A stretch of DNA of 64,000 nt from a virus (taxonomy: Duplodnaviria; Caudoviricetes): the IMG/VR virus record IMGVR_UViG_3300028591_000158, positions 21,044 through 85,043 of that record; one strand, given 5' to 3'. Position numbers and translations under genes: made by a program. Of this stretch, positions 1 to 58,681 are shown one piece after another. The notes below the pieces were generated by a model that was given only the letters and a program-made list of their open reading frames with translations, was not told the DNA's origin and ran no database searches. Every line of letters starts with the position of its first letter. Within the stretch, counting starts at the first letter, position 1.

Positions 1-1
1 T

Positions 2-484
2 ATTATTAATTGGCAGTATATATTAAGAGAATCTACTGAAGATGAAGTTGAAATGGCTTTTGCTAAAGCGAAAGAATTAGAAGTAGATAATTTATTTTTT
101 AAATTAACTTGGGAAAAAAGTTATGTTCCAAAAGATCCTGAAAGATTAAAAGATTTAACTGGACTTCAGGCTCTTACAAGAAATGAATTTAAAGAAAAAA
201 CAGGTAAACTATATAAGATGGAAAGATGCAAACAATTATTTGACTGCCCGACAATAAATTGGAATGGTGAATTGTTAGGCTGTTGCTCCAACAAGCACAC
301 ATTTGGAGTTAATGTTTTTGAAGTTGGTTTAGAAAATGCTTTAAATTTTTCAACATTTATGGATTCAAAAAATTGAGTTTTAAATATGTCTACTGATTTA
401 GATAATAATAATCCTTGTGCAAATTGTAAGCAGTATAAAAAAATAAAAGATTTTTTACAACCTAACACTATTATCAAAAAATAA
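2..484 (+). CDS. Radical SAM/SPASM protein, C-terminal part (5' end outside window)
   Basis: Reads through TGA at 374-376 to TAA 482-484. Clear paralog of 8719-9687 (WQYI.RESTE, CKQLFDCPTINWNGELLGCC, C-terminal CANC). Confidence 0.85.
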
Positions 485-494
485 GGAGTAAAAT

Positions 495-1628
495 ATGCAA
501 ATTGATTATGATAAACTTAATAAAGTTAATAATCAAAGCAATAGAAAAATAAGATTCATTACCATATTTTCATTAGATCTAGAAGATCATTTTTCACAAC
601 CTTTACATCAAATGTGTCTTGATAGTTGATATGAATGAAAAAATAATAATAAACAAATAAAAAATATTATTATTTTTAATGAAGATAGTCAAGAATATAA
701 AGATTTTTTAACTATATTTTTAAGTAACCCTTATAATAGAACTAACACAATACCGCGTAGATTGGCAAATGGGTTTAGAATGTACATTTTATCTAAATAT
801 AAAAATTATCTATGATTAGATAGTGATATGTATATAAACGACGTTAATTTTGAATGAAAAGCTGACATGTTATTTAGTGGTATATCTTGAAATATAGCTT
901 TTAATGGTGATCAATTAGACTTTTTCAAGGATATTTTTAATTTATTTTTAACTGAAAATTTAGGAACTTTAATTGATTGAGAAATTAGTTTAAAATACAA
1001 TTTACCATTTATATCATTTAATAAATTATTACACAATAATTGTTTTACTCATCTTTCCAAGTTTGATTTAGGACGTAGATGTTTTAGTATAAGTTATAAT
1101 GAAAATAATTCTAAAGAGATTATAAAATGTTATAATAATATAAAAAAAGCAGAAAATGAATACTATGAACATTTTAATTCTGATAAATCATGATACTTTA
1201 AATTTATTTATTATAAAATGCGTAACTTAATTAAACATATAAGTTTTATAACATCGGTTGTCCTAGAAAATTATGATAATTTTTATTTACGTTATATGCC
1301 AGATGACTTAAAAAACAAACTAAGGTTATTACAAATAAAATATCCTGATAAATACCAATATAAATTAGAATATTTAAATTCAGAATTATCCTGAATAAAT
1401 AGAAACATTAATACTATTAATTTTTTAGGTAATATGCTAGATAATAGGCAAGATATGTCTGATGATAGTATTATTTATAATTTTTTAAAATACATTAATT
1501 CACCATTAGCAAATCTCTTAGAAAATAAATATATTACAATTTCTGAAACAAAATATATTTTAAATGTGGGAGAGCTTACAGGTGAAGAATTAATAACAAA
1601 ACTTACTATATTTTTTATAGATAATTAA
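495..1628 (+). CDS. GT-A fold glycosyltransferase, GT32/OCH1-like
   Basis: RBS AAGGAG, ATG 495, open to TAA 1628 with 8 in-frame TGA. RMYILSKYKNYLWLDSDM resembles the GT32 R..ILY..GG.YLD.D motif. Confidence 0.65.
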
Positions 1629-1647
1629 AAAGAAAGGAGATTTAAAC

Positions 1648-2688
1648 ATGAAATTAACATACATATTGCCTACATGTGAACCTGATTCAATGTTTAAATT
1701 CCTTTTACCGACTATTTACTTACTAAAACCAATAAAACACTTATTAGAATTTAATATATGTTTTCAACCGCCCTATACTAAAAATGATATTAAAAAAGTA
1801 TTAGATGAATTTAAAAAATGTCACATAAAAGTTAATTATATGTTTAAAGATTATAAAGTTGTAAAACCTTATACTCCTTTAATTAAAATGAGAAATGATT
1901 GTGCTATGATGAGCCCTAATTCAGATATATATGGATTAATTGATGATGATATGTCTTTTGAAGACAAATCTATTTGTGGTTATATAAGAGATATGATTAA
2001 TAGATTTGAAACTGAGTCTAGCTTAGCAGCTATATCTTTTTATAATCAACCTGAAATGAATTATAGAGAAAATTTTTATTCAACTAATGCAGGTTTATTT
2101 TATAGGGGCGGTAAATACTATGGTTTTAAAGGCTTACTGCCAAAATATATAACTGAATTTAATAAAAAAGTTAATTTAAAAGTTCCTTATAATAATGAAA
2201 ACTTATTACGGTTGTTTGGCGGGCATCAAGATAAATTTTGTGCTATGACCAGACTTGCAACAGGTGATTATGGAGATTGTATAATTAATGTACCAGTAAA
2301 TCACTTAGAAAATAGAATTGCTCGTGGCGATAAAGCACATGGCTGAAAAGATGCTGAAATTTTAGAAGGATCAATAGCAAGCTTTATTGTAAAATATTTT
2401 AATAGTAGATTTATGGAAACACATGCTTTAACTTTATTTGATAAAGAAGAAGATGAATTAATTTATCCTTATAAATATGAAAATCATATTTTAAAAGAAG
2501 AGTATGATTTATATGATGATAGGGGTATTATTAAAGATTGGTTTAGCTCATTTAATATTAATTGAAAAGATAAAAGATTTATTAATAAATATAATTATTT
2601 AGAAAATATTGGTTTATTAGTTGAGCTACCAAAAGATCTTCAAGAGTTATTAGCTAATAAAGTAAATGAAATTTATAGTAAAGAGTAG
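1648..2688 (+). CDS. GT2-like glycosyltransferase
   Basis: N-terminal LTYILPT strand and GLIDDDM DxD motif. Reads through 2 TGA to TAG 2686-2688. Confidence 0.65.
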
Positions 2689-2696
2689 GAGTTATT

Positions 2697-3899
2697 ATGA
2701 TTGTAAATAGAGAGTATGATATATTTCTAATAACTAAAGATAACTGAAGAGAGCAAGAAAATTTATTTTTTGGATATAAGACAGTTGATAATGAAGGTAT
2801 GTGATTAGATGTTAAAAATATAAAAAATAAATTAATTATTACTGGAAGTTATATTCAACCTGCTATTGCTATCTATAATCAAAATAATTTCTGAGCAATT
2901 TCAAATAGTTGTAAGGTATTGGTAGATTATTTAACTGAAAATAATTACACTTTAACTAATAATGATGAATATATAGAACAAGATTTAGGCTTAGATGGAT
3001 ATGCTTTTAATTATCCTGAAATAAGTACTAAATGAAAAGAAATAAATTTAAATCCTAATTTTTCTCATATAGAAATCAGTAATGATAGTTTATATGTAAT
3101 AGAAGAAAAAGATAAAGAAAATTTATTGTTTAGCAAAGATTTAAAAGATGGCAAAGAAATAATAGATGAATGATTTAAAAAGTATTATTTTTATATATTT
3201 AAGGAATCAAGTAAAGATAATACTTATATAACTGCCTCAGTTTCTGGAGGCTTAGATAGTAGATTCTTAATTAATTTTTGAAAGAATGCTAAGATAAATA
3301 AAATTGTTTCTAAATGAGCTAAAAATGATACTGAGACAGGAAATCGAAGATATATTGACGGTCTAATTGCTAGGCTAGTAATATCAACTTATACTTCACA
3401 TAAAAGTAAAATAAATGCTAAACTTAGAACTGTTAATTTAGGAAAAACTACTATTCCAGAAATAGAGGATGAATTATTTTGGTATGGTATTGCTTATAAA
3501 CCTAATGAACAAATAACCATCAAGAAGGTAGATAAAAATTCAAATATAAAAACAACAATTTTGAGCCTTTCGGGTGTTGGCACTGAATGATTAAAAGCTG
3601 GTGCGGGTTGTAAAGATCCTAATTTTATTCTAGGTACAGCTAGAAGATTTTTTATTTCAAAATTTATTAAGGGATATTATTTAGGTAAATTGGCAACAAT
3701 ATTGCCTTACTTGGATTCAAGTTTATTACAACTAAGAGGTGTTGAAGATAATAGTTTTCTTTACTTATTATATTTGTTATATAGCCCAGAAATGTTAGAA
3801 ATTCCATTCTATAATAATACTCAAATATATGTGCCAATAGAAGCAGAATTGGAAAAAGCAAGGCTAATTTTAAGGGAGTGGAATAATGAAGGTATATAA
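2697..3899 (+). CDS. Asparagine-synthetase-like ATP pyrophosphatase, paralog 1
   Basis: SVSGGLDSR PP-loop. 8 in-frame TGA. N-terminal DIF..FFGYKTV..EG.WL motif shared with 3886 and 12722. Confidence 0.7.
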
Positions 3900-5034
3900 T
3901 GATATATTTTTTGTAATAGATACTAATAATTATAATGAAAATAAAAAAGATCTATTCTTTGGATATAAAACAGTAGAAAATGAAGGATTTTGATTGGCTG
4001 TAAAACATAGGCTAAGCAAAATTCATATTTATACTAGTTATATTTCACCAGTTATAATAATATATAAGAAAGATGATTATTGGGCTATAAGTAATAGTTG
4101 TTATTATTTAAATGAATTTTTAAAAGAAAAAGGAATTATTTTAGAAATTAATGAAAAATTTTTAGATTTAGAATCTAAGAAAAAAACTTCATTCAGCTAT
4201 GAATACTATAATGACATTTTATTATATAAAGATTTATTTATAAATAATAATGATGAAGAGATTGATATTATAAATGGTAAATTAACTTTAACAAAAAAAG
4301 ATTTTAAATTATTTGAAAAAGATATTAATTTAAACTTAGATATATTAAATAAGTGGTATGAAAAATATTACAATTATTTATTAAATAAAGATAATGTTAC
4401 TTTATCATTATCTGGCGGTTTAGGCAGTAGATTTTTATGGTATAATTTTTTAAGACAAAATAATAGCTGCAAATTATATTGCTATAATAATAAATCAAAT
4501 GTAACAGATTATTTAGACGGAAAATTAGCTAAGGAATTGATTAAGAAATATACTGATAAAAATTTACTAACTGTAGATAAAGAGCCTAACAGAAATGTAA
4601 AAACATTAGATTGTATAAATAACTTAGATATGAAAGAATTGAATCAATTTATTCTTGGTATCTCTTATAATCCAATGCTTTTAGTTAAGACTGAATGACT
4701 AAGAGTTGTAGGTACAGGTTCAAATATATTTAGGTATGAATTTCAAGACTTAAATTTTTTAAATGGAAATATCAGAAGAAACTGAGTAGCTTCATTTATT
4801 GCAAAACATTATTTAATTAATTGTGATCATATTACTCCATATATGGATTCTCTGCTATTACAATTAGATACAAAAGAACCTGACTATTTACATGTTATTT
4901 TATATTCATTATTTGCTAAAAGCTTATTAACTGATAATATACCATTTATTACTAAAAACAAAGTAGGTGAATATAAATTTCAAGAGTTTAGAAAAGAATT
5001 ATTTGAAAGATTTTCAAAAATAACTAATTTTTAA
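3886..5034 (+). CDS. Asparagine-synthetase-like protein, paralog 2 (PP-loop SGGLGSR)
   Basis: Joins track ORFs 3994-4698 and 4843-5034 in one frame through TGA. Paralogous motifs along the full length. Confidence 0.7.
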
Positions 5035-5044
5035 GAGGTAATTT

Positions 5045-6064
5045 ATGGCAATAGAATTTTATAAAATGAATAACATACTTTCAATTGAGCCTACTAAAGA
5101 TTATTTTATGATATGCTGACATATGACAGGCTGATGTAACTATCATTGCCATTATTGCATTGCAGAGCATTTGAGAACTAAGTGAATTGATGAAAATGTT
5201 ATAATAAAAAGAGCAATTAATTTAAATAATTTTATAAATAAAAATATTGATAAAAATAGAAAAATTGTTTATAAGCTATCTGGGGGGGAAGTTACATATT
5301 ATAACCTTCCTAAAATATTAGATAATATTCAAAGATTAGATAAAGTTATTGTTGCAACCAACTTATCTCAAAAGCTAGATTATTATTATGAGTTAGAAGA
5401 TTATTGTTTTAAAAGAAATATTCAATTAGTTTTATTATGTAGTTGGCATGATGAAAATAAAAATTTTGAAAATAAATTTATTGAATTAACAAATTGATGT
5501 CGAAGTAAGCCAAAGCAAAAATTTAATTATAAAGATCCGCAAGCCACAATTGTTGTTACAAAAAATTTTGATAAGACTAAGCTAAATAAGTTATTAGATA
5601 ATAATTTATGAAGGATAAGGCTAACTAGAGAACGTGATGCAAATCAAAAAAATGTTAGCTTAAGTAATGAAATGCTAGACTATGTATATGAGTATAATAG
5701 ATTGTATGATAGTAAAGCTATAACAAATGAAAAAAGCTTTTGTTACAAAGTTACTTATTCAAATGGAGAGCAAAAGTTTGCTTGCGCCTCCAATTTAACA
5801 AATTTTTTAGATTCCTCTGGTTTTATTCCAGATGGGTACTATTGCACGGCAGGTATTGACTCTATTGCAGTTCTTCCAAATGGAAATATTTCATTAGCAA
5901 GATGTGATTATTTAATTAATAATATCTTAGGGTCTATTGATAACTATGAAAATATTCAACTCCCAAAAGATGGCATAATATGTCACCTAAATGGTAACAG
6001 TTCTGAAAAAAATAAAAGATGTGATTTATGTGCAGGTACTAGACTATTCAAAAATAGGAGTTAA
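5045..6064 (+). CDS. Radical SAM protein with C-terminal Cys cluster (subfamily A)
   Basis: CNYHCHYC motif, LSGGEVTYY, C-terminal YC.AG and CxLC. TGA read as Trp. Confidence 0.9.
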
Positions 6065-6070
6065 ACTTTT

Positions 6071-7090
6071 ATGAGACTATATAAGAATAATGACATATTA
6101 GAAATAACTAATAAGACTAATTTTTTTAATATAACTTGGTATATAACAGGGTGGTGTAATTATCACTGTCCTTATTGTATAAATAGTAATATGAAATGTA
6201 GTTGAATAAGTGAAGAAATTATTCTTAATAGAGCCGAGAAATTAAATAACTTAATTAACGCCTTAAATATAGATAAACCAATATCTTTAAAATTACTTGG
6301 GGGTGAGGTAACCTACTATGATTTAATTGCAGTCTTAGATAAGATTAAAAAGCTTGCAAAAATTATATTAATAACTAATTTATCTCAGCCAATTAGTTAC
6401 TTTATTAATCTTGCTAGATACTTAGACTCAAGAGAAATAAAATTTATTTTAATTTGTAGTAAACATGAAGAAAATAATGAGTTTGATTCTAAATTTATAG
6501 CTTTAAATGATGAGCTAAAAAAGTTAAGAAAAGAAACAAACAGGAAATTTGCTTATTTTGAACCTCAGCTAAATATAGTGGTTGATAATAATTTTAATTG
6601 GAAGAGTCTCAGACTTTTTGAAGATGCTGGAATTAAAAAGATAAATCCTACTGTTATGAGAGATTTAAATGAAAAAAATTTAGATGTAACTATGGATACT
6701 TTACAGCATATAGACTATTATAAGCAAATACAGCTTGATTATTTTAAGCATAGTAAAGATACTAGTAAAGGTAATAAAGAGATAAATTATTCCTTTGATG
6801 TTAAGTTTAATACTAATACAGAAGAATTTACTTCATTACTTAATTTAACTAATTTTATTGATGCTAATGGATTTATTGGTACTGGCTATAATTGCTCATG
6901 TGGTATTAATACTCTTGCCATTTTACCAAATGGTAATATAGTAAAATCTAACTGTTTATATTTAGCTGATAAACCACTTGGAAATATCGATGATAATATT
7001 GACATAAAGCTAGATAATGAATTAGTTAAATGTAAACTTAAGCCAGAGCAGCGCTGTATCCTAGTAAGTGGAGCAAATATCTGTAAATAG
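6071..7090 (+). CDS. Radical SAM protein (subfamily A)
   Basis: WYITGWCNYHCPYC, LLGGEVTYY, YNCSCG and C-terminal Cys. Confidence 0.9.
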
Positions 7091-7108
7091 CTATGAAAGG
7101 ATTTTGAT

Positions 7109-8695
7109 ATGAAGATATTATGTTATAATATATCGCATGAATCAGCTTGAATGTATCATGATACAGAAACAAAAGAATTATATTTTTTTAGTGCTGAACG
7201 TGAATATAATACAAAAGATGCAACTATAAGAGAAACAGACCCAATTAAAATCGCAGAAATGAAATTTGGTTTTGATAAGAAAAATCCAGAGCACATTTTA
7301 GTTGGTTGAGTTAATTATTGAGGAACTTTCGTCGATAAAGAAAAGGCAAATATTCCTGAAACAAAATTATATAAAAAAATCAAAGATAATGTATTTGTTA
7401 TAGATCATCATTTTGCGCATATCTTATCAAGCGTTGCTTTTAATAACTCTTTAAATCAAGGTATTGCAATAGACGGTCAAGGTGATCATAAACATACTGG
7501 GTTAGTTGTCAAGAATATTCACGATTTAAACAATTTACAATTTAATTATCTTCCTAATGACCCTCCAATAGGAAAATTATTTAATATATTCTCAGCTGAT
7601 TTAATTAAAAGTAAATATATGACTACAACTGATGAATTAACTGATCGACATCGAGCTGTTGGAAAAATTATGGGATTACAAGCTTATGGAAAAATAAATC
7701 AAAGTATTTATAATAAATTAGAAAGTTTTGAATTTAGTCTAAATAATTTAAATCAATTTAAAAATTATTTTAGTGAGATATTTTCTAATATAAATGTTTA
7801 TGATGAAAATCAAAATTTTGATGCTGTAACTACCTTATATCAATTTTTAACAAATAAAATTGTTGAAATTTTTAATAATAATTTTAAAGCTGGTGATAAT
7901 ATTGCTTATTCTGGTGGTTGTGCATTAAGTACAGTGGCTAATGATAAACTAATAAAAAATGGATATAATCTAACTATATGTCCTGCAGCTGGAGATATGG
8001 GATTATGTATTGGTATGTTAAAATTTATAGATTTATATTATAATTTAAATATAGATTTTTCAAATTTAAAATATGCATATTATAATGATGAACCAAATAT
8101 TATAATACCAGAAAAAAATATTAAATTTGCAGCTAAATTATTACAACAGAATGAGATAATAGCATTTGTTAATGGGGCTGCTGAAGTAGGTCCTAGAGCA
8201 TTAGGTCATAGATCTATATTAATGAATCCTTCTATTGAAAATGGCAAAGATTTTATTAATGAAAGAGTTAAACATAGAGAATGATGAAGACCATTCGGTG
8301 GATCAACAATTGATACTAAAATTATTAAGAATTACATTCCATCGAATTTAGATTTCTTTATGTTAAGAAATTATGAGATAAAGGACGAATGACAAACTAA
8401 ATTAAAGAGCATTTGTCACAAAGATAATTCATGTAGATTACAGATAATTGAAGATAAGTTAGAACCTTTATACCAAGTAATAAATGAATTTAACAACTTA
8501 ACAGGTGTTCCTGTTGTATTAAATACATCATTTAATATTGCTGGCAGACCAATTCCTAATTATAAAAAACATATTATGGAAACATTTAAGGCATTAGATG
8601 GAATAAAATATCTTTTTTATAATGATAAAATATATAAGAAAGAAAATATTTCTAAATATGGCGGAGTAATAGATATTGTTGAAGTACAATTATAA
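7109..8695 (+). CDS. NodU/CmcH/TobZ-family carbamoyltransferase
   Basis: SHES, ER, DHHFAH, IDGQGD, GKIMGLQAYG, SGGCALS, PAAGDMG, EVGPRALGHRSIL, HREWWRPFG (both W are TGA), LNTSFNIAG. Confidence 0.93.
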
Positions 8696-8718
8696 GTAAA
8701 TTGAGGCAGTGCATTATT

Positions 8719-9687
8719 ATGAAATATATGATTAGATTAGACATATGTACACTATGTACTTTAAATTGTGTAGCATGTCCTATTAGAAAAATAAACTATG
8801 GTAAATTAAAAGCTGGATATGTTAAATTTGAAATATTTAAAAAATTTATTGATGAAAATTTAGAATTAATACGAAAGATTGAAATATCAAGTGCTGGAGA
8901 ACCTTTATTAAATCCGGACTTGATTAAAATTTTAAAATATGCTTATGAAAATAATATTGTAATTACTTGTAGAAATGGAACTAATTTTAATTCATTAGAT
9001 GATGCCAAAATTAAGGCTTTAGTTGACTATAAGGTAGAGGATATTGTATTCGCGTGTGATGGGGCAACACAGGAAACATATCAAAAATATCGAAGAAATG
9101 GTGATATTAATAAGGTATTTGATTCAGTTAGAAAAATACAAGAATATAAGAAAAAAATTAATTCAGAATATCCTAGATTAATTTGACAATACATTATTAG
9201 AGAATCAACTGAAAGTAAAGAAGAAATTGAGTTGGCTAAAAAGTTAGCAAAGGAATTTAATGTTGAACTTAAATTCAAACTTACACACGAAATTAATTAC
9301 ACACCAAAAAATTCGCAAGAATTGAAGGAAATAACTGGATTAAAATATGTTACTAGAAAAGAAGCAGCTGATAATGGAGAATATTATTTAACAGCTTCAA
9401 AATGTAGACAATTATGGAATTCACCAGCTATAAATTGAAATGGAGATTTATTGGGATGCTGCTGAAATTGAGAACCATTTAATATAAATGTATTTGAAGT
9501 TGGATTAGCAGAGGCTCTAAAAAATAAAGAATACTGTAAAGCAAAAATGTATCTGAGCGATAAAATTGAAAATGATAAATCTATACCATGCATGAATTGT
9601 GAGTTTGGAGAAATTGTTCATAATAATCATTTAATTGATGATTGTTGAATTAAAACTCATGATCCACATTATAATAAGGAAAATTAA
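8719..9687 (+). CDS. Radical SAM/SPASM protein (subfamily B)
   Basis: CTLNCVACP, GEPLLNP, ACDG.TQETYQKYR.NG, SPASM-type CRQLW..P.INWNG.LLGCC. Stop TAA 9685-9687. Confidence 0.9.
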
Positions 9688-9690
9688 ATT

Positions 9691-10482
9691 ATGAAAAAAG
9701 ATATTAATAGATTGATTATAAATGAAACAGAAAATAAACCAATTTTAAATTATATAGAAACAAATATTGTTATGCATTGTAATTTAAATTGCAGAGGTTG
9801 TAATCATTTTGCTCCGTTATATTCTGAAAATGAAGATATGATTGATTTTGATAGATGAACCAAAGCTGTTGATCGAATAGCTGAAATGTTTGAAATTAAA
9901 AAATTTGGTATTTTAGGTGGTGAACCTTTACTTCATCCAAGATGACTAGATTTTTTAAGATATTTGCGAAATAAACTACCTAATGCTTTATTAACATTTA
10001 GAACAAATGGTATTTTAAGCAATCTATTAGTAGCAAATAAAAAAGAACTAGAAGACTTAAAAGTAGAATTAGTTATAAGTGATTACAACTTAAGCTTAAA
10101 TATTGACAAATCACTTTTTAATAGAACATTCGACAGAATAAAAACAAAATTTGAACACCCTTCTATAGATTCTGAAGGAAATCAAAGTAAAACAGACAGT
10201 TGATTACAGTGTAGAAATAAGCATTGTTTAGCTTTAACTGAAGATTATATCTATTGTTGTAATTATGGTCTGTCTTTTAACAAATTAAATGAATATTTTG
10301 ATTTAAAAATAGATATAAATGATGATGTAAAAATTAATATATTTAATTCAAGTGCAAATGATATAATTAAATGAACAAGACACGCTAAAGATTGTTGTAA
10401 ATATTGTAATTTAAATAATAGAAAATATGATCAAGAATGAGGATTAAGTAAAAAAGAAAAATCTGAATGAATTATTAATTAG
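9691..10482 (+). CDS. Radical SAM protein (subfamily C)
   Basis: HCNLNCRGCNHF, ILGGEPLLHP, TNG, C-terminal CCKYC. Stop TAG 10480-10482. Confidence 0.9.
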
Positions 10483-10492
10483 AGGTAATATT

Positions 10493-11521
10493 ATGTTTAA
10501 AAGTTCTGATATAGTTGCTATAATTAAAGATCAAAATAACGCAATGTTTGATTTAAGCTGAAAATTAACTTCGTGGTGTAATTATAACTGCTCTTATTGT
10601 AGTCAAGAAACAAGACAAAAAAAATTTAATTCACAGCCTATATTAGAAGCACGGGCAAAGAATATAGATAAAATTATTAATCAGTTATCAAACAAAAAAG
10701 CAATTCAATTATCTTTAATTGGTGGAGAGATTACTTATTATAATTTAATAGATATTTTAAAAAATATAAATTTATCTAAAATTTTTAAAATAAGACTTAC
10801 TACTAATTTCAGCCAAGATAACAATTATTTTATAGAACTTTTAGATTTTTTATATAAACAGAATAATAATTTAAAAATTACTCTCACTTTATCATTTCAT
10901 GATGAATATATACCATTATCATCATTTTTAAATAAAGTTGTTAAACTTCATGAAAGTATACAGACTAAATATAATAATAAATCTAAAGTTAAACTCAATG
11001 TATCATTAGTAATAAATAACGAGTTAGACTGTACTTTATTAAAACAATTTATTACTAATTATCCTAAATTAACTATTTGTCCTAACATACAACGTGATAT
11101 AAATGGAAAGATTGTTGATCTAGATAAAGAGCATATGGAATTTAAAACTAACTTAACCACTAAAGAAAATTTTAAAACTAATAAAATACTACTAATATTA
11201 AAATCAAATAAACATATTTATTTTTCTGATACTAGTACTATTCTTAATAATATAGATGAAAAAGTGTTTATATCAAAAGGCTACTTATGTAGTGCTGGTT
11301 TAAATAATCTTAGAATTGATGAAAATGGTAACATTCGAAGAGGACAGTGTCCATTAGAATTAAGCAAAAATATAGTAGGAAATATAGATAATGATAAAAA
11401 TATTATATTACCAACTGAACCAATTAAATGTTCTTTCGAAAATAGTAGCATTAAATCAGGATGTATTCTATGCCCTTGGGTAAATATTAAAATTGATACT
11501 GAGGAAGGCATAAAACCATAA
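10493..11521 (+). CDS. Radical SAM protein (subfamily A)
   Basis: WKLTSWCNYNCSYC, LIGGEITYY, YLCSAG, CILC. Confidence 0.9.
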
Positions 11522-11635
11522 TGAAAAAAAAATAAAAGAAATTAAAAATAAATTAATAGTTAAGTGTCAGTAAGATAGCTGTCCTTTTTGTGGTATAATC
11601 CATATCTGAAAATAGAAATGGGGTTGTAAAATAAA

Positions 11636-12649
11636 GTGTATAAACAAGATGACATTAAATCTATAAATTTAATAAATAATGATTTTTTTGTAATTAAATG
11701 ATTTGTAACAAATTGGTGTAATTACAGTTGTTCATATTGTATTCAAAATCCCAGAGATAAAGCCGGCTGAATTTCAGAAAATAAAGTAATAGAAATTGCT
11801 AAAAAGTTAAATGAAGCCCTTTATAACTCTAATATTACAAAAAGAATTTCTTTACAAATATTAGGTGGAGAAGTAACATTTTATAATTGATCAAAAATAT
11901 TACCTTATATAGAAAATGTTGGTAAAGTATTTATAACTACCAACTTTTCAAATACTTTAGAATATTATAAAGGTTTATATACTTATTGTTATTCTAATAA
12001 TATTGTCTTAAAATTATTATGTAGCTATCATGAAACAGGAGATGAGTTTTTTACTAAATTTATAGAATTAAAACATTGGTGTGCAGATAATAAATATCAC
12101 CTTCCTAATCTATCTTTTGTAGTGGGAAATGATTTTGATTTTACTATATTTGATAGATTTCCTGAGATAGCAAATAAAAGAGCTAGTATGTGCCCCTTAG
12201 TTCTCCCCGATCAAAGTACAGTAAAATTAAATGAAGGGGTAATAACTAAAATCAAAGAGATTAAAAGTAGAAAAGCAAATAATAGTAAACAAGAATTAAA
12301 AACTAGAGCTGAAAAATTTATTTTTAAAATTAATGATGACTTTATTGTTTGTAGTGCTCCAGAATTATTTGTAAATTTAGAAAAGGGTTATTTAGATATT
12401 AAAAAAGTATATTGTGATGCAGGCATTAATTCTATTAGTATTGATCCTGATGGTAGTATTACACGATGTGGTAATAATTCGCAATTACTTGGTAATTTAT
12501 TAACAATGGAGAATCCTAAGTTTAATTTAAAATCAAGTATCTGCGAAGATAAACAATGTAGATTGTGCCAACCTGTAAATATATGTAGAGTCATTGATTC
12601 AACCGATGATCCATTTATAAGGAGGGATAGGACATGCCCAAAGAAGTAA
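11636..12649 (+). CDS. Radical SAM protein (subfamily A)
   Basis: GTG start after GGGGT. WFVTNWCNYSCSYC, ILGGEVTFY, YCDAG, CRLC. Confidence 0.88.
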
Positions 12650-12732
12650 TTACAATAAAAGCTAATCCTGGTAATGATAAATCTTTTAAAGATAATCATA
12701 TAGAAAGAGAGAAAGATACTAATGAATTATAA
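12634..12732 (+). CDS. 32-aa small ORF (MPKEVITIKANPGNDKSFKDNHIEREKDTNEL)
   Basis: Strong RBS GGAGGGA. Overlaps the upstream stop and the downstream start, as expected for translational coupling. Confidence 0.5.
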   Translation: MPKEVITIKANPGNDKSFKDNHIEREKDTNEL

Positions 12733-13891
12733 AGATTTTGATATATTCTTAATCACAAAAGATAATTGAAAAAGTCAAGATGAAGTTTTTTATGGCTATA
12801 AGACTTTAGATGACAATGGGCTTTGATTAAAAGTATTTTGAGAGGATAGTTGCTTATTAATTAAGGGCAGTTATATTCAGCCTTATATTAGTATTTATCA
12901 ATCAGATGATTACTGGGCTATTTCTAATAATTTTTATTGTTTAGAACAACATTTAATTAGTAAGAATATTAAGCTTACTAAAAATAAAGCATTTGAAGAA
13001 TGGGACAAAGATTCTTTTAGGTTCTGTATTCAAGCAAGTCCAACAGAAACTTTATATAATGAAATTAAATTTAATGATAATTTTTCTTATTTAAAAATAT
13101 TAGATGGTAATTTAGAAATTATAAACTTGGAAATAGATTGCTTTACAAAACCTTTAGAGGATTCAAAAGAAGATTTATTAAATTGATATAAAAAATATTA
13201 TGATTATTTGCATACTTTACCCGAAGGTACTGTATCAGCCCAACTATCTGGCGGATTTGATTCAAGAATATTACTACCATTGTATGAAGATATAAATGGA
13301 GTCAGTATAAACGCACAGTGGAATAAAGAAGATGATGATAGTTATCGTGATGGATTAGCCGCAAGATTATATATTGCAAAAAAATATCCGCACTTATTTG
13401 ATAATTTACTTTCAAAAGAAGATAAAACTTGAGTTGCTAATAATGATAAGGCTAAACAAGAAAATGCAAAATTAATAACGCAATTTATCACTTATGGTTC
13501 ATATCCTATAAAAGGTGAGCTAGACTTATCAAATATGATGCCTTGTAAATCAACTAGTGGTAAAATAAGCTTAGCTGGAATGTCTCTTGAATTACATAAA
13601 AATAATCTAGCTAATAGCGTGCAAGAAATTGAAACAACTACAAGAAGATATTTTGTAAATAGATATTTAATTAGATATTATAGATCAAAACAAAGAGTAG
13701 TATGTCCTTTTCAAGATAAGGAATTATTAAAGATTAAAGGTTGTCGTGATTTAACATTTGTTTATATATTATTAGGATTATTTAATATTAACGATGAAAA
13801 ATTACCATATTATACTTATTTAAATAGTAAACCAGTTTTAAAGTTTGTTTCAAATGAAGAGATAGAAGAGGCGTTATCTTTATTAAAATAA
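12722..13891 (+). CDS. Asparagine-synthetase-like ATP pyrophosphatase, paralog 3
   Basis: LSGGFDSR PP-loop. Joins track ORFs 13208 and 13535 through TGA. Same N-terminal motif as paralogs 1 and 2. Confidence 0.7.
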
Positions 13892-13920
13892 AAGAGGTTA
13901 AAAATAACACCTCTTTTTTA
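13891..13920 (+). terminator. Rho-independent terminator closing the modification island
   Basis: AAAGAGGT...ACCTCTTT stem followed by a T-tract. Confidence 0.75.
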
Positions 13921-13921
13921 T

Positions 13922-13929
13922 TGTATATT
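13922..13929 (+). promoter_or_regulatory. Sigma70-like -10 class TGTATA(A/T)T, representative copy
   Basis: Same or near-identical octamer at 14132, 15097, 22314, 26149, 29847, 30782, 32622, 38541, 42923, 44614 and 54677. Each is shortly upstream of a gene start, often just after a terminator. Confidence 0.65.
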
Positions 13930-13956: not shown

Positions 13957-14112
13957 ATGGAAAAAGAATCAGTGCTTGGTGTTGAAGAATTGTTAAATTT
14001 TTTAGAAAATAAGCCAGAAGAATTTAAAGCTATTTGGTTAAAATATTTAGAAGATACTGCTTATGAATATAATGATGAAGTAATAGAATTAATGGCAAGT
14101 AAATTAAATTAA
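13957..14112 (+). CDS. Hypothetical protein, 51 aa
   Basis: RBS GGGGGA, ATG, open to TAA. Confidence 0.6.
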   Translation: MEKESVLGVEELLNFLENKPEEFKAIWLKYLEDTAYEYNDEVIELMASKLN

Positions 14113-14160
14113 ACTTTTCAATATATTTAATTGTATAATTAAAGAAAGGTAGTGTTAATT

Positions 14161-14361
14161 GTGACTAAAAGAGAATTTAATCAAATTAGAGAATTAATAG
14201 TAAATATATGTAATGATCAAAATTTAGATGGCTTGTGCTACTATTATGGAATTACAAAAGCTGATTTTTATGAATTTGTTGATGAGCTTGCTTTAATTGG
14301 ATTTAAAGAAAAGTATAATCAGCACAATCATAAAGAGCACAATAAAAATATAGGTGAGTAA
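14161..14361 (+). CDS. Hypothetical protein
   Basis: RBS GAAAGGT 10 nt before GTG. Confidence 0.6.
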   Translation: MTKREFNQIRELIVNICNDQNLDGLCYYYGITKADFYEFVDELALIGFKEKYNQHNHKEHNKNIGE

Positions 14362-14363
14362 TA

Positions 14364-14828
14364 ATGGAAAATAAGATTGGTTTTTGGGGTATTACTGATA
14401 CCTATGGTTGCTTTAGTAATTTTTATCCGTGTAAATTTAAGTGCTTTAATGATTTAGAATTTAATTGTACTGAGCAAGCTTTTATGTATGCTAAGGCAAT
14501 AACTTTTAATGATATTGAAATAGCAAACAAAATTTTAGCAGAGTCAGATCCTAAGAAGATTAAAGCTTTAGGTAGACAAGTTAAAAATTTTAATGATGAT
14601 ATTTGGAATGACTTGAGATTTATGTATATGCGTTTAGTTAATTATAGTAAATTTAGTCAGAATATAGAACTTTTAAATAAATTAGTTAGTACTGGATCTG
14701 CTTATTTATTTGAAGCATCACCTTATGACTCAATTTGGGGTATTGGTAAATTTGGAGATGGTCAAAATTTATTAGGACAAGTACTAATGCAGATTAGAGA
14801 AGATTTTATTTTAATGAGGAAAAAGTAA
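14364..14828 (+). CDS. NADAR family protein (YbiA-like)
   Basis: FSNFYP, TEQAFMYAKA, PKKIKALGRQVKNF, KFSQN, EASPYDSIWGIG, GQNLLGQVLMQIR. Confidence 0.93.
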   Translation: MENKIGFWGITDTYGCFSNFYPCKFKCFNDLEFNCTEQAFMYAKAITFNDIEIANKILAESDPKKIKALGRQVKNFNDDIWNDLRFMYMRLVNYSKFSQNIELLNKLVSTGSAYLFEASPYDSIWGIGKFGDGQNLLGQVLMQIREDFILMRKK

Positions 14829-16913: not shown

Positions 16914-16935
16914 AAATAAAGGGGTGGTTTTACTA

Positions 16936-17820
16936 ATGAAAATATTTAATGAAAATTTAGAAAGAATTACAATATTACATATGGCAGGTAAAACCACTAT
17001 GCCTGAATTTAAAACAATTATTGAAGGTCAAAAAAAGAATTTAATAATTAAAGATGATAGTATATCAATAATTATTATTGCAACTAAAAATTATATTAAA
17101 GATTCACCTGTCATTAATCAATTAAAATTTAATAATATTAGATATTATAATGGAGCACAAGAGCTTGATGAAGAAGGTTGGAGTAATTCAATGAAAATTG
17201 ATCTTATTTTAAATAATTTAAAAAAGATTAAAACTGAATATACTTTAATTCTTGATGCTCGTGATGTTCTTATATGTGATCATTTAAATAAAACTTTTAT
17301 AAATAAATTTAAAAAGTTAAACACTAAAATTTTATTTAATGCTTCAAGTTCAAGATATCCAAGTTGGATTAATATTAAAGCTGTTGATACAAAATATAAA
17401 AATAATTTACAAAGTAAGCCGTTTTTAAATGCAGGTGTTTGTTTTGGTGAAACAAAAGCACTACATGCTATGTATCAAGCTGCAAGTGAGATTAGTAAAA
17501 AATATAGCCAGTTAAATAAATCTGAGCAATTCATATTAAAGCTTGCAATATCTGCTAATAATTTAACTTCTGTGGTAAGTCTAGATAATGAAGATAAATT
17601 ATTTAAGTGTGTGCATCAATCAATAGATAAGCCTGATTTTTTAGTAATTAGAGAGTCCGGTAATTATGTTATTAAAAATATTAGAAATTATCAGTATAAG
17701 ACTTCTAGATATAAGAAAAAAATAAAATTAAAAATAGAAAAAGCAAAATTAATTTTATATCCTAATAGTAAAGGTCATGAGGAAGAGGTTAAAACCTTTA
17801 TTGACAAAATAAGAAAGTAG
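16936..17820 (+). CDS. PLOD-type glycosyltransferase domain protein
   Basis: LILDARDV, LFNA, FLNAGVCFG, SEQ match the lysyl-hydroxylase GT-domain pattern (FTD.YDV, F.AE, YLNSG...G, DDQ). Confidence 0.6.
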   Translation: MKIFNENLERITILHMAGKTTMPEFKTIIEGQKKNLIIKDDSISIIIIATKNYIKDSPVINQLKFNNIRYYNGAQELDEEGWSNSMKIDLILNNLKKIKTEYTLILDARDVLICDHLNKTFINKFKKLNTKILFNASSSRYPSWINIKAVDTKYKNNLQSKPFLNAGVCFGETKALHAMYQAASEISKKYSQLNKSEQFILKLAISANNLTSVVSLDNEDKLFKCVHQSIDKPDFLVIRESGNYVIKNIRNYQYKTSRYKKKIKLKIEKAKLILYPNSKGHEEEVKTFIDKIRK

Positions 17821-19883: not shown

Positions 19884-20225
19884 ATGGATTGGATTACAAA
19901 TGGTACAGCTATAATATCATTAATTACTGGTTTAATTGGATTAATTACAGCAGGTGTTACTGCATTTATTGCAATTAAAAAAGTTATTAAAGCTAATAAA
20001 GGAAAATCATTAAAAGAAATTTGAGCTTTAATTATGAAAATTGCAGATGCTGCTATGGTTGAAGCTGAGAAATCTCAATTAAGTGGTAAAGGTAAAAAAG
20101 AAATGGTTATGGCAGCAGTTGATGCTGGTGCTAAAGAAGCTGGAATTGAAATAACACCATTCTTAGACCAATTATCTGCTTATATTGATCAGTCAATTAA
20201 GTTTGTAAATGATATGAATAAGTAG
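19884..20225 (+). CDS. Holin-like protein (LL-H type)
   Basis: One long N-terminal TM, then AAMVEAEKS..SGKGKKEMV..AV. One internal TGA. Confidence 0.6.
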
Positions 20226-22711: not shown

Positions 22712-23239
22712 ATGATTAATGGTATTGTATGTGTAGATAAAAATTTTGCAATTGGTAAAAATAATGCTGAAGGTAAACCTCAATTATTATTTAATATTTC
22801 TGCTGATATGGCTTATTTTAAAGAGAAAACATTACATAATATAGTTGTAATGGGTTATACAACTTATTTATCCTTACCAAAAAAGCCTTTATCTGATAGA
22901 GTTAACCTAGTTTTATGAGATAAAGCAACATCGCCAGATTGTTTAAAAGGCTGTATTACATTTAATAATTTTGATGTATTATTAAAATTTGTTAAAGAGC
23001 TAAGCAAAATATACGAAGTATTTGTTATTGGTGGTGCTTCTGTTTATAATTTATTTATGCCTTATTATGATAGATTATTTATAACAAAAGTAGCTGCAGA
23101 AGATAAAGAAGCAACAGCTTTTTTTCCTAATATAGATAAAGATACTAATTTTGAACTTGTAAGCAAAATGAACTATGCACCTAAAAATGAGTATCCATTA
23201 TCATTTACAATTTATTCAAGAATAAAGGAGAATAAATAA
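22712..23239 (+). CDS. folA: Dihydrofolate reductase
   Basis: IVCVD...IG, DMAYFKEKT, VVMGYTTYLSLP.KPL.DR.N, VIGGASVY. One internal TGA at 22916. Confidence 0.92.
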
Positions 23240-24078
23240 TGTCAGTAGCAGATAAGTATTTTAAAGATGCAGTTAATAAGATTTTAACTAAAGGCGTTTC
23301 AGATGAAGCTTTTGAAGTCAGACCTAAGTGGCCTGATGGAACTCCAGCTCATACAAGAAAGATTCATTGTTATATTGCAAGATATAACTTAGCTGAAGAA
23401 TTTCCAATTTTAACTCTTAGAACTCAAGCCTTTAAATCTTGTGTTAAAGAGATACTTTGGATGTGGCAAAAGAAGTCAAATAAAGTATCTGAATTAGGTG
23501 CTCATTTCTGGGATGCCTGGGAATTAGAGGATGGAACTATTGGTAAGTCTTATGGCTATCAAGTAGGTCGTAAATTTCACTTTAAAGAAGGTTTTATGGA
23601 TCAAGTAGACTTATTACTATATAAGTTAAAAAACAATCCTATGGACCGAAGAATGATAGTTACGCTTTGGGATAACGAAGACTTAAAAGATATGGCGTTG
23701 GCTCCATGCGTATTTCAATCAATTTGGGATGTTGCTGACGGTAAATTAAATATGACTTTGATACAAAGGTCAGGAGATGTTCTTGCTGCCGCAGCCCCAG
23801 GAGGTTTTGATGTGGTTGAATATGCAATTTTACAGCACATGATTGCCCAAGTATCTGGTCTACAGGTAGGGGAGTTAGTACACATTGTCACAAATTTACA
23901 TATTTACGATCGACATGAAAAGTTAGTTAAGGAAGTACTTGAAAATCCTGAATATCCAGCACCAAAGTTCTGGATTAATCCTGAAGTTAAGAATTTCTAT
24001 AACTTTAAACCTGAAGACTTTAAATTAATTGATTATAAATCGACTAAGGCAAGCAGTTCATTCGAGGTTGCAGAATAA
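23239..24078 (+). CDS. thyA: Thymidylate-synthase-family enzyme with Asp at the dUMP-specifying Asn position
   Basis: MALAPC, QRSGD, HIYDRH. FDVVEY where canonical enzymes have FN/WN...Y. Confidence 0.9.
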   Translation: MSVADKYFKDAVNKILTKGVSDEAFEVRPKWPDGTPAHTRKIHCYIARYNLAEEFPILTLRTQAFKSCVKEILWMWQKKSNKVSELGAHFWDAWELEDGTIGKSYGYQVGRKFHFKEGFMDQVDLLLYKLKNNPMDRRMIVTLWDNEDLKDMALAPCVFQSIWDVADGKLNMTLIQRSGDVLAAAAPGGFDVVEYAILQHMIAQVSGLQVGELVHIVTNLHIYDRHEKLVKEVLENPEYPAPKFWINPEVKNFYNFKPEDFKLIDYKSTKASSSFEVAE

Positions 24079-26375: not shown

Positions 26376-26786
26376 ATGAAGATTAAGTTGTTTAAAGAAA
26401 TTACTTTACCACTTAAAAAACGTGATAGTGATGCAGGTTGGGATGTTTTTTTACCTGAGGATGTCACTTTTAAGGCACATTCACTTACAACTGTTGATTT
26501 AGGTTTTGGTGTAAAATTACCTAGTGGCTATGCAGGCTTATTTGCAATGAGAAGTTCTGTTTGTAAAACAGGTATGACTATTCAAATGCCGCTTATTGAT
26601 GAAGGATATCTTGGAGAATTACATTTATTAGTACAAAATTCAACAGATACTGACTATAGTTATAAGAAGGATGAAAGAGTTTGTTCTTTGTTTATTTTCC
26701 CAGTATTTAGAGATACATTAGAAGTAGTTGATGATTTAGGAACATCAGACAGAGGAACTAATTGGTCAGGTAGCTCAGGTAAGTAG
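26376..26786 (+). CDS. dut: Trimeric dUTPase
   Basis: DAGWD, RSS, IDEGYLGE, ERVCSL, RGTNWSGSSG. Confidence 0.88.
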   Translation: MKIKLFKEITLPLKKRDSDAGWDVFLPEDVTFKAHSLTTVDLGFGVKLPSGYAGLFAMRSSVCKTGMTIQMPLIDEGYLGELHLLVQNSTDTDYSYKKDERVCSLFIFPVFRDTLEVVDDLGTSDRGTNWSGSSGK

Positions 26787-32671: not shown

Positions 32672-33856
32672 ATGAGCAAAATAAAAACTAGAACAAGATA
32701 TAAAATTGTTGGTTCAGATTATTCTGCTCAGGAATAGCCTGAGCCACGATTAGCCGCATATATGTCTCAAGATCCAGAAATGAAAAAAGTTTATTTTGAA
32801 GGTAAAGATTTATATGCTAGAATTGCTCAGTCAGCATTTAACAATGATTATGCTGATAATCTAGAATTTTATCCAGAAGGAACTGAGCTTGAAATTGATG
32901 GTAAAAAAGTAATAGCTGGTAAAAAAACTCATAAAAATCCTGAGGGAAAAAGTCGACGTTCTGTTGGAAAAACATTACTTTTAGCAGCAAATTATGGCAT
33001 GGGACCTAAGACTGCTGGTGAAAAAATGGGTAAATCTGCTAAAGAAGGTGGTGAACTACTAGAGAGCTTTTTCAAAGGCTTTCCAGTTTTAAAACAAACT
33101 ATTGAAGAATCAAAAGTATTCTTAAAAAAGAATGGCTATGTTGAAGATGCATTTGGTAGACGTAGGCATATTCCAGAAATCAATGAAAAGCCGTATGATG
33201 CAAGGTATGCTGATGAGAAAAAAGTTGAAGAATTAACTTTTAATCCATTTTTAAATTGTAATAATAGAACTTTTACAGATGATAAATTAAATAAATATAT
33301 TACACTTGCAAAAAACACTAGAAATAATGAAGACTTTGATAAATTAGCTAGAGAGGCTGATCGAGATGGAATTATATTAACAGCTAACACTGGTAGAATA
33401 GCCCAAGCTGAAAGACAATGTTTTAATGCAAGAATTCAGGGTTCAGCAGCTTCACTTACTAAGCTAGCAATGGTTAATATATTTAATGATGCATTATTAA
33501 AAGAATATAAAGCTGACTTAATTATTTCAGTACATGATGAAGTATTAGTTGAGTGCCCAGATTATTATGCTGACAAAGTTGAAGAACGTTTGCCAAAAAT
33601 TATGATTGATACAGCTAAGCCATATATTGATATTCCGATGAGTTGTGACCCTTATAATGTTACCCGTTGGTATAGTGATGAAATGGCTGCACAGCTAAGA
33701 GAAGAACTAGATAAAATGGAAAAAGGTGATCCAGATAAAAATATACCACCAATTGCACATGATATTGCAGTTCAAAATATTTATAAAGATCATTGTGAAA
33801 TTCCAAAAGAAGCTATAGACAAATGTTTAGCAAGTAATGATGATTTAGAGTTTTAA
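32672..33856 (+). CDS. polA: Family A DNA polymerase, C-terminal part, with in-frame TAG at 32735-32737 inside motif A
   Basis: MSKIKTRTRYKIVGSDYSAQE*PEPRLAAYMSQD, motif B RSVGKTLLLAANYGM, NARIQGSAA, motif C VHDE. Confidence 0.88.
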
Positions 33857-36112: not shown

Positions 36113-36150
36113 TAAACATTGACTAAATTAAATATAAGTAGGAGATGATT

Positions 36151-58669: not shown

Positions 58670-58681
58670 GTGGTGACTAAA

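Follow-up and report, generated by a model that had tools for sequence, protein, structure and literature searches.

Here we describe a block of genes at the start of a 64,000-nt stretch of phage DNA (Duplodnaviria; Caudoviricetes). This stretch, hereafter the window, corresponds to positions 21044-85043 of the IMG/VR record IMGVR_UViG_3300028591_000158, a single 85,043-bp contig with a GC content of 25% and no terminal repeats. Since CheckV puts the completeness of the contig at ~38%, the phage is probably a jumbo phage with a genome of ~220 kb. A preliminary description, made by reading the sequence without database searches, had portrayed the block as a phage-borne island of co-oriented, packed genes over 13.9 kb that ends at a terminator, extends to the left of the window, and encodes seven radical S-adenosylmethionine (SAM) enzymes, three AsnB-like ligases, a carbamoyltransferase and two glycosyltransferases (GTs). 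It had also proposed hidden Markov model and structure searches for each enzyme, and synteny comparisons in related phages. Searches of these kinds uphold the enzyme class assignments, with one qualification: of the two GTs, g3 belongs to a family with a convincing GT-A model, made for a paralog, while g2 is reduced to a DXD-type motif. Tail-fibre and tail-protein genes upstream of the island and T4-like replication genes downstream confirm that it is carried by a phage.

The packed gene order is seen under genetic code 4. With table 11, the first 14 kb of the window fragments into short open reading frames (ORFs); with code 4, positions 1-13891 hold 13 contiguous plus-strand genes (g1-g13; Table 1), and the whole window is gene-dense on this strand. 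Table 11 and a reading of TAG as Gln were rejected since neither yields open genes across the island. Code 25, in which TGA is Gly, was also rejected: a TGA-TGA pair at residues 392-393 of g8 aligns with the WW of the TobZ motif REWWRPF, and TGA codons in one paralog match TGG in another, indicating that TGA encodes Trp. TGA makes up 72% (54/75) of the Trp codons in g1-g13, and 14-40% in the tail, post-island and replication blocks of the contig. Stop-codon recoding in recoded phages is tied to late genes. The high TGA usage of g1-g13 may mean that the island is translated only once recoding is active, or that its genes have a separate origin. No tRNA, such as a suppressor tRNA, was found in the window or the retrieved flanks.

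The island is an ~18-kb block that starts ~4.4 kb, or perhaps 6.7 kb, upstream of the window. The part to the left of the window holds the remainder of g1, a fourth, divergent AsnB-like gene (PP0), a PLOD-type GT gene and a paralog of g3. Intergenic gaps range from -17 to 67 nt between a 748-aa ORF and g11, and are 3-19 nt inside g1-g11; gaps of 114 nt and 72 nt follow, and there are 472 nt after g13. The block ends with an intrinsic-terminator-like hairpin and T-run. A consensus terminator scan had a loop limit of 8 nt, and hence missed this hairpin, which has a loop of 10 nt. Upstream of the island are a split NrdD gene and genes for a collagen-like tail fibre (1244 aa), a tail protein (833 aa) and a protein of 748 aa that is rich in Ser, Thr and Tyr; this last ORF comes after the tail proteins, and the island begins 26 nt past it. 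Downstream are genes for a NADAR-domain protein, a phosphoesterase, a holin, DHFR and ThyA, and a dUTPase-family protein, followed by the T4-like replication module.

Table 1. Genes and other features of the island and its surroundings (positions refer to the window, except where marked "genome").
Feature	Position	Strand	Remarks
g1, radical SAM family C, putative SPASM type, C-terminal part (312 aa in full)	1..484	+	gene start 455 nt left of window
g2, putative DXD-type GT-like gene	495..1628	+	motif level
g3, predicted GT-A fold GT family	1648..2688	+	model of the upstream paralog's family
g4, predicted AsnB-fold PP-loop ligase without glutaminase Cys	2697..3899	+	SGGLDSR; AlphaFold2 fold matches
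g5, paralog of g4 with altered PP-loop SGGLGSR	3886..5034	+	33% identity to g4
g6, radical SAM family B	5045..6064	+	CNYxCxYC; four invariant C-terminal Cys; paralogy
g7, radical SAM family B	6071..7090	+	Pfam Radical_SAM 29.8 bits; alignment
g8, TobZ/NodU-type O-carbamoyltransferase	7109..8695	+	Pfam N and C domains; phrog_1601
g9, radical SAM family C, putative SPASM type	8701..9687	+	Radical_SAM E 7e-10
g10, short radical SAM family D (263 aa)	9691..10482	+	Radical_SAM E 1e-8; Fer4_12; CNLNCRGC
g11, radical SAM family B	10493..11521	+	Pfam above cut-off; alignment
g12, radical SAM family B	11636..12649	+	paralogy; Pfam below cut-off
g13, predicted AsnB-fold PP-loop ligase paralog	12722..13891	+	SGGFDSR; motif, paralogy
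Intrinsic-terminator-like hairpin and T-run, end of block	13892-13925	+	AAAGAGGT / ACCTCTTT, 10-nt loop
Second g3-type gene, upstream part of island	genome 16641-17588		all-against-all comparison
PLOD-type GT-domain paralog, upstream part of island	genome 18796-19482		paralog of window 16924-17820
PP0, fourth divergent AsnB-like gene, upstream	genome 19495-20583		all-against-all comparison
PLOD-type GT-domain protein, 3 kb downstream of island	16924..17820	+	Pfam GT_PLOD 40.1 bits
Collagen-like tail fibre, 1244 aa	genome 3980-7714		upstream of window
211-aa GT-like gene	genome 7723-8358		upstream of window; phrog_854 phage glucosyltransferase family, E 5e-7
DHFR	22712-23239		end overlaps ThyA start
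ThyA homolog, Asp-type	23239-24078		GGFD motif
dUTPase/DCD family gene	26376-26786		

All seven radical SAM proteins carry a CX3CX2C motif, which starts at residue 13 in g1, 31 in g6, 29 in g7, 19 in g9, 30 in g10, 29 in g11 and 28 in g12. All-against-all comparison sorts them into three families: B (g6, g7, g11 and g12), C (g1 and g9) and D (g10). Matches to Pfam Radical_SAM (PF04055) exceed the gathering score for g7, g9, g10, g11 and full-length g1; those of g6 (18.4 bits) and g12 (24.1 bits) fall below it, and both proteins are paralogs of g7 and g11 (E 1e-79 to 1e-29). Full-length g1 (Radical_SAM E 1e-9; CNLNCPAC at residue 13) is 50% identical to g9. With the SPASM models (PF13186/TIGR04085), g9 scores exactly at threshold (21.5 bits), g1 has a weak match below it, and g12 matches TIGR04085 below the cut-off. 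The top NCBIfam match of g9, TIGR04317 (E 8.5e-22), is far under its own cut-off. Family B proteins share CNYxCxYC, a GGE motif and four invariant C-terminal Cys residues (C267, C287, C313 and C326 of g6). When 1.84 billion representative proteins were searched with a family B profile, 99 clusters matched at E <= 1e-30 and 1,245 matched at E <= 1e-10. Wherever the source name of a relative could be looked up, it gave no function. Two of the island's families, radical SAM family B and the small AsnB-fold ligase family, are without a characterised member.

The AsnB-like ligases are recognised by their fold and PP-loop. The loop reads SGGLDSR in g4 and SGGFDSR in g13, with the variants SGGLGSR in g5 and TAGLDTR in PP0; judging by these motifs, g5 and PP0 may be catalytically altered. 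An AlphaFold2 model built from six family members has a predicted local distance difference test (pLDDT) score of 66 and a template modelling (TM) score of ~0.43. Foldseek matches this model to carbapenam synthetase (CarA, 1q15, E 1e-6), beta-lactam synthetase (BLS, 1mbz, E 3e-6), and human ASNS and E. coli AsnB (E 1e-5 to 4e-4). The matches span both domains, with 405-487 aligned columns, and our confidence in the two-domain AsnB fold of the family is moderate. On this model, g4, g5 and g13 are predicted to be AsnB-fold, ATP-dependent, carboxylate-activating enzymes. No N-terminal glutaminase Cys is conserved at position 2 of the family alignment (N-termini read MIVN, MKVY and MNYK). Since g4, g5 and g13 thus have no Cys for glutamine hydrolysis, the amine must come from another source. 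The family has no Pfam (including Asn_synthase, PF00733), NCBIfam or PHROG match at E 0.01-0.1, a search of PDB sequences with its profile gave no match, and neither did scans of IMG/VR for close relatives with a single protein and with the profile. An ortholog of g13 sits alone beside a 211-aa GT-like gene in another locus (L005). We also observed that a homolog of g5, P0005, keeps the PP-loop Asp that is Gly in g5.

The carbamoyltransferase, g8, matches phrog_1601 (E 1e-94) and both Pfam domains of this enzyme type: Carbam_trans_C (E 6e-46; 157 bits against a cut-off of 27) and Carbam_trans_N (E 2e-15; 57 bits against 24). It has a Kae1-like N domain and a YrdC-like C domain with metal and carbamoyl-AMP motifs. 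It aligns with TobZ at E 7e-27, keeping REWWRPF and HHxAH (DHHFAH in g8). At the positions of TobZ W408, G421 and R423, g8 has F, G and R (…AFVNG…GPRALGHRS), and is TobZ-like at G421 and R423. A validated carbamoyltransferase of 5-hydroxymethylcytosine (5hmC) reads GPRALCNTT, with C and T at two discriminating positions (Yang et al. 2021, PMC8670742). At the level of motifs, g8 lacks the non-canonical residues of the 5hmC carbamoyltransferase clade at two of the three discriminating positions.

The fold model that bears on g3 was made for its upstream paralog, which is 34% identical to it. This model (pLDDT 90; predicted TM score 0.90) matches K4 chondroitin polymerase, TarP, GnT-I and TarS (2z86, 6h2n, 1foa and 5tzi) at E 1e-8 to 1e-7 with probability 1.0. 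A DDD motif (D103-D105) is invariant in 24 sequences of the family, and 0 of 26 homologs have a Pfam domain. The model supports the assignment of the g3 family as GT-A glycosyltransferases with high confidence. In g2, the motif block ADxFRxYILS...LWLDxD is kept in six family members; g2 has no Pfam, NCBIfam or PHROG match, and hhalign found no link between its family and the other GT families. The PLOD-type protein downstream of the island scores above the 27-bit cut-off of GT_PLOD. PLOD-type GT domains are of the kind that glycosylates collagen. The 211-aa GT-like gene starts 9 nt past the gene for the collagen-like tail fibre, which has 74 collagen-like GXY triplets with Pro, Glu or Asp at X and Gln, Lys or Thr at Y, Lys and Thr being frequent at the latter position. 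Outside the relatives described below, a g3-family homolog lies in a mixed context in Streptococcus phage GXN1, beside two GTs and SbcCD. The "thymidylate synthetase" of this phage is not ThyA-type, and the case was rejected.

The same island is found on two code-4 contigs from one Joint Genome Institute metagenome (L003 and L004), with 45-65% identity and with altered gene numbers and order, for example two carbamoyltransferases. A complete 230-kb code-4 genome from IMG/VR (G001, locus L125; CheckV 100%) has a reduced island, with two g3-type GTs, one g2-like gene, and three family B and one family C radical SAM genes. The core of GTs and radical SAMs is thus kept in G001, and gene content varies among all four islands. 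The G001 island also has a gene like that for UDP-glucose 6-dehydrogenase (Ugd; phrog_9148, E 8e-23; PDB 7kws, E 1.5e-13), adjoins copies of the 211-aa GT-like gene (phrog_854), and lies ~1.3 kb from tail-fibre-like genes. No AsnB-like ligase or carbamoyltransferase was found in the whole G001 genome. Among ~50,000 GenBank phage genomes, tblastn found no match to g4, to g6, to P0106 (a fusion protein, see below) or to the PLOD-type GT.

Natural fusions join the enzyme classes of the island. P0137 combines a family B radical SAM with an AsnB-like domain (hhalign 97.9%, E 4e-13; BLAST matches to g4, g5 and PP0), and is represented by two cluster members from four contigs. In P0187, a family B radical SAM is fused with a PLOD-type GT domain (BLASTP E 4e-10), an ORF at L003:10652-12220 joins a g2-like domain to a family D radical SAM, and P0067 and P0106 are family B proteins with a common extra domain of ~300 aa. 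Furthermore, in L003 and L004 homologs of g10 lie beside g2-like domains or are fused with them, and in L009 an AsnB-like gene between two family B genes forms a module that lies between two very large proteins. Together, the fusions, the repeated adjacency and the conserved core argue that the radical SAMs, sugar transferases and amide ligases belong to one pathway.

The closest cellular homologs of family B, with ~28% identity, are in metagenome-assembled genomes of rumen Treponema. In four loci (L089, L092, L093 and L120), a family B-like gene is paired with a gene for a ~545-aa MatE-family transporter, and L092 also has an AsnB-like gene right beside the family B-like gene. The radical SAM gene is split in pieces in L093 and L120. 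The preliminary description had raised the scenario that homologs would map to a host surface-glycan locus, from which the island was picked up as passive cargo. This was not seen: the Treponema homologs sit amid housekeeping genes and MatE genes.

What does the island make, and on which acceptor? Three products had been put forward in the preliminary description: hypermodified DNA bases, a modified glycan on virion proteins, and a product like a ribosomally synthesized peptide with post-translational modifications (RiPP). The comparative evidence favours the glycan, weakens the case for DNA, and lends no support to the RiPP-like product. In favour of a glycan are the GT and radical SAM core of G001, its Ugd-like gene, the fusions of radical SAMs with GT-like and AsnB-like domains, the adjacency to tail-fibre genes, the turnover of gene content among relatives, the lack of predicted membrane helices in every island protein, and the TobZ-like G and R of g8. 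We propose, with a confidence that stops a little short of even, that the block is an island for building and editing a glycan in the cytoplasm, similar to the host recognition clusters discussed below. Its acceptor is most plausibly a virion protein, because a GT-like gene immediately follows that for the collagen-like fibre, the contig encodes two PLOD-type GT domains, and the Ser/Thr-rich 748-aa ORF precedes the island. Paralog expansion and the turnover of gene content among relatives suggest that the product is under diversifying selection.

Family-level knowledge and genomic context suggest the following steps. The GT-A-type transferases (the g3 family, the PLOD-type pair, the 211-aa phrog_854-like protein and probably g2) would glycosylate an acceptor made late in infection, using nucleotide sugars that probably include a uronic acid. 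The likeliest acceptor would be a virion protein, for which the collagen-like tail fibre and the Ser/Thr/Tyr-rich 748-aa protein are candidates. Oxygen-independent C-H chemistry on the sugar would then fall to the radical SAM enzymes (four of family B with a putative auxiliary-cluster domain, two of putative SPASM type and one short). The AsnB-fold ligases would adenylate a carboxylate, either C6 of the uronic acid or a group added in a previous step, and couple it with an amine, giving an amide. Finally, the TobZ-like g8 would O-carbamoylate a sugar hydroxyl.

Several points weigh against this proposal. A gene for sugar-nucleotide synthesis is missing from the island of this phage, the Ugd-like gene being confined to G001. 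The radical SAM families have no characterised member, and it is their neighbours and fusions that point to sugar chemistry. The AsnB-like model is only moderately confident (pLDDT 66, TM ~0.43), and g2 is a putative GT by its motif only. None of the five complete relatives checked has a PLOD-type GT, which makes the link to collagen specific to this phage. The pairing with MatE in Treponema is easier to reconcile with a small exported molecule than with a protein glycan, and the Asp-type ThyA of this phage keeps a DNA acceptor in play.

If the acceptor were DNA, the ThyA homolog would make 5-hydroxymethyl- (or 5-methyl-) deoxycytidine monophosphate (dCMP), glycosylation after replication or direct carbamoylation of 5hmC would follow, and tailoring by the radical SAM and AsnB-like enzymes would confer resistance to restriction. 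The ThyA homolog matches B. subtilis ThyA over the full length (E 5e-77), with GGFD in place of PFN (the equivalent of N177D), and by its sequence is probably a dCMP methylase or hydroxymethylase. All 29 of its IMG/VR relatives at 58-70% identity share the Asp (GG[W/F]D), many of them on 130-233-kb contigs. Its gene lies next to that for DHFR, the contig also encodes NrdD and a dUTPase/DCD-family protein, and every island enzyme is soluble. There is precedent in that a phage carbamoyltransferase makes 5-carbamoyloxymethylcytosine, such genes co-occurring with Asp177 thymidylate synthase (TS) homologs on modified-DNA contigs (PMC8670742), and in that the AsnB homolog CmoY amidates carboxylated cytosine in phage DNA (PMC12783734). 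TarP is among the top PDB matches of the g3 family, and GT-A enzymes whose folds resemble that of TarP add sugars to 5hmC in phage DNA (bioRxiv 2023.12.21.572611). However, the Asp-type ThyA and the island occur independently of each other. In 12 phage records with an Asp-type ThyA (four at least 95% complete, 220-233 kb), we found no carbamoyltransferase, family B radical SAM or g3-type GT, in searches whose positive controls matched through TGA codons, and in G001 the island core is accompanied by an Asn-type ThyA. Hence, the Asp-type ThyA looks like a separate lineage trait. Co-variation of this ThyA with the carbamoyltransferase and ligases, considered from the comparison of this phage with G001, was rejected on more genomes; family B matches beside ThyA in IMG/VR (marine and other) were generic radical SAMs next to canonical Asn-type TS, and were uninformative. 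Furthermore, g8 has the TobZ-like GPRALGHRS rather than the GPRALCNTT of the validated 5hmC enzyme, its gene is 15 kb from that for ThyA and surrounded by radical SAM genes, and the ligases are unlike CmoY beyond the PP-loop. No C5-methyltransferase or CmoX-type gene was found on the contig, Pfam scans of the island ORFs gave no methyltransferase-fold match, and TET-associated DNA GTs rank as low as 35th and 41st among viral fold matches. The DNA-hypermodification reading is thus weakened, and we regard it as unlikely. Its more specific form, in which a sugar on ThyA-supplied, C5-modified cytosine of the phage's own DNA is edited by radical SAMs, amidated and carbamoylated, is less likely still; this phage is the only one seen with both the Asp-type ThyA and the island. 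If true, no known DNA hypermodification would be as elaborate, radical SAMs would be acting for the first time on a DNA-linked glycan, in an anaerobe, and the chemistry would form a new anti-restriction class.

The island might instead change the host cell or make a soluble product, either a modified nucleotide sugar or small glycoside that host machinery would put on the envelope, serving superinfection exclusion or receptor masking, or a small amidated and carbamoylated molecule that plays some other part in infection. Alteration of the host O-chain has been proposed for the GTs of similar islands (PMC7029224). The four Treponema loci with family B/MatE pairs, one of which (L092) adds an AsnB-like gene, suggest an exported small product. 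The chemistries of TobZ-, BtrN- and AsnB-type enzymes are typical of aminoglycoside and nucleoside natural products, which the combination in the island would fit. Nonetheless, we consider this explanation improbable. No membrane helices were predicted in any island protein, and no flippase, polymerase, lipid-carrier transferase or exporter was found in the phage island, which argues against direct remodelling of the host envelope. The presence of six GT-like genes points to transfer onto an acceptor rather than synthesis of a free sugar, and the adjacency to tail genes is left unexplained. A sugar-independent, RiPP-like maturation, in which radical SAM/SPASM enzymes crosslink or epimerise a peptide or virion protein and AsnB-like enzymes form isopeptide or lactam bonds, would draw on enzyme classes that the island has. 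SPASM-type radical SAMs and AsnB-like cyclases are classic RiPP enzymes, and lasso-peptide cyclases form such bonds. Weak NCBIfam matches of the island's radical SAMs to peptide maturases are consistent with this idea, as are the lactam-forming BLS and CarA as the closest folds of the ligases, the L009 module flanked by very large proteins only, and the Treponema pair next to an exporter. However, the gaps of 3-19 nt in the core leave no space for a small precursor-like ORF, and the Treponema loci yielded no small ORF that is conserved. Because the radical SAM motifs start at residues 13-31, an N-terminal RiPP recognition element (PqqD-like domain) is not possible, and Pfam scans of the phage island matched no such element, leader protease or exporter. 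The fusions and the conserved core link the radical SAMs to GT-like domains instead. We therefore consider RiPP-like maturation very unlikely.

Several genes around the island merit mention. Directly past the terminator is a NADAR-domain gene (window 14364-14828; Pfam E 7e-45), and G001 has a homolog with 55% identity on the upstream side of its island. Enzymes of the NADAR type undo the ADP-ribosylation of DNA bases, so the gene beside the island may be an anti-defence gene. Between the terminator and this gene are two small ORFs, at 13957-14112 (51 aa) and 14152-14361 (69 aa), the first of which is preceded by an AGGGGG ribosome-binding site. A holin gene (Phage_holin_6_1, E 2e-6; window 19884-20225) lies between the island and the nucleotide-metabolism genes, and in G001 a homologous holin region immediately follows the island. 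The replication region contains homing-endonuclease-type genes (GIY-YIG with NUMOD motifs; HNH) at 36145-36954, 52934-54127 and 58670-60709, and a split polymerase gene (30825-32576 and 32762-33856).

How does the island compare with known systems? Like TobZ, the tobramycin 6''-O-carbamoyltransferase, and NodU/NolO, g8 has both domains, HHxAH and REWWRPF, but its good alignment with TobZ is confined to the YrdC-like C-terminal domain; cyanophage "Nol-like" enzymes are ~30% identical to g8. The phage 5hmC carbamoyltransferase (PMC8670742) is a member of the same NodU/TobZ family, and the contig of g8 also carries an Asp177-type TS homolog, but g8 differs in its TobZ-like G and R and its setting amid radical SAM genes, 15 kb from ThyA, and 12 of 12 Asp-type ThyA relatives lack a carbamoyltransferase. 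Beta-lactam and carbapenam synthetases are the best full-length fold matches of the ligases and share their two domains and an inactive glutaminase domain without the N-terminal Cys. In contrast, the ligases are only 9-14% identical to them (TM ~0.43), have no match at the sequence level, and lie in a genomic setting of glycan type rather than beta-lactam type. CmoY of phage S-B43, which ligates glycine to carboxylated cytosine (5-carboxymethylcytosine) in DNA, is likewise a PP-loop enzyme of the AsnB superfamily encoded by a phage; it lacks glutaminase activity and turns a carboxylate into an amide (PMC12783734). However, CmoY consists of just a synthetase domain (271 aa) and has CmoA and CmoX as neighbours, whereas the island ligases keep a degenerate N-terminal domain of the N-terminal nucleophile (Ntn)-like type, have no CmoA or CmoX nearby, and match CmoY by hhalign with a probability of 17% in the PP-loop region only.

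The closest resemblance is to the host recognition clusters (HRCs) of pelagimyophages and cyanomyophages, hypervariable islands of the tail-fibre region with GTs and radical SAM cassettes (Zaragoza-Solas et al. 2020, PMC7029224). These lie between VrlC and the neck protein gp14 in a Tevenvirinae-like backbone (PMC7029224). The island described here is likewise a large variable block at the tail-fibre genes of a T4-like or jumbo phage, with several GTs and radical SAM cassettes and with turnover of content among L003, L004, L125 and this phage. The likeness is one of tail adjacency, gene content and turnover, as read from a contig that covers ~38% of the genome. To our knowledge, no reaction, product or target has ever been shown for a tail-adjacent radical SAM/GT island. 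Hence, the statement in the preliminary description that the combination matches no pathway is right as regards chemistry, but the kind of island has been described in marine myophages. The differences are clear: the phage is a code-4 phage with 25% GC from a habitat other than marine, its radical SAM families differ (none of the five proteins scanned, g6, g7, g9, g11 and g12, matches NF033640), a new AsnB-fold ligase family is present in four copies, and sugar-activating genes are absent from this phage's copy. The island thus adds to its kind a compact, 18-kb, all-soluble version in a recoded, low-GC jumbo phage of gut or rumen type. Its relatives form a natural set, with the core only, the core with ligases and carbamoyltransferase, or the Asp-type ThyA only. 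The compact soluble block, the linked enzyme families and this natural set make the function of the island more testable. If it is tail fibres that are decorated, the modification would matter for the host range of phages and for how they recognise receptors in anaerobic gut ecosystems.

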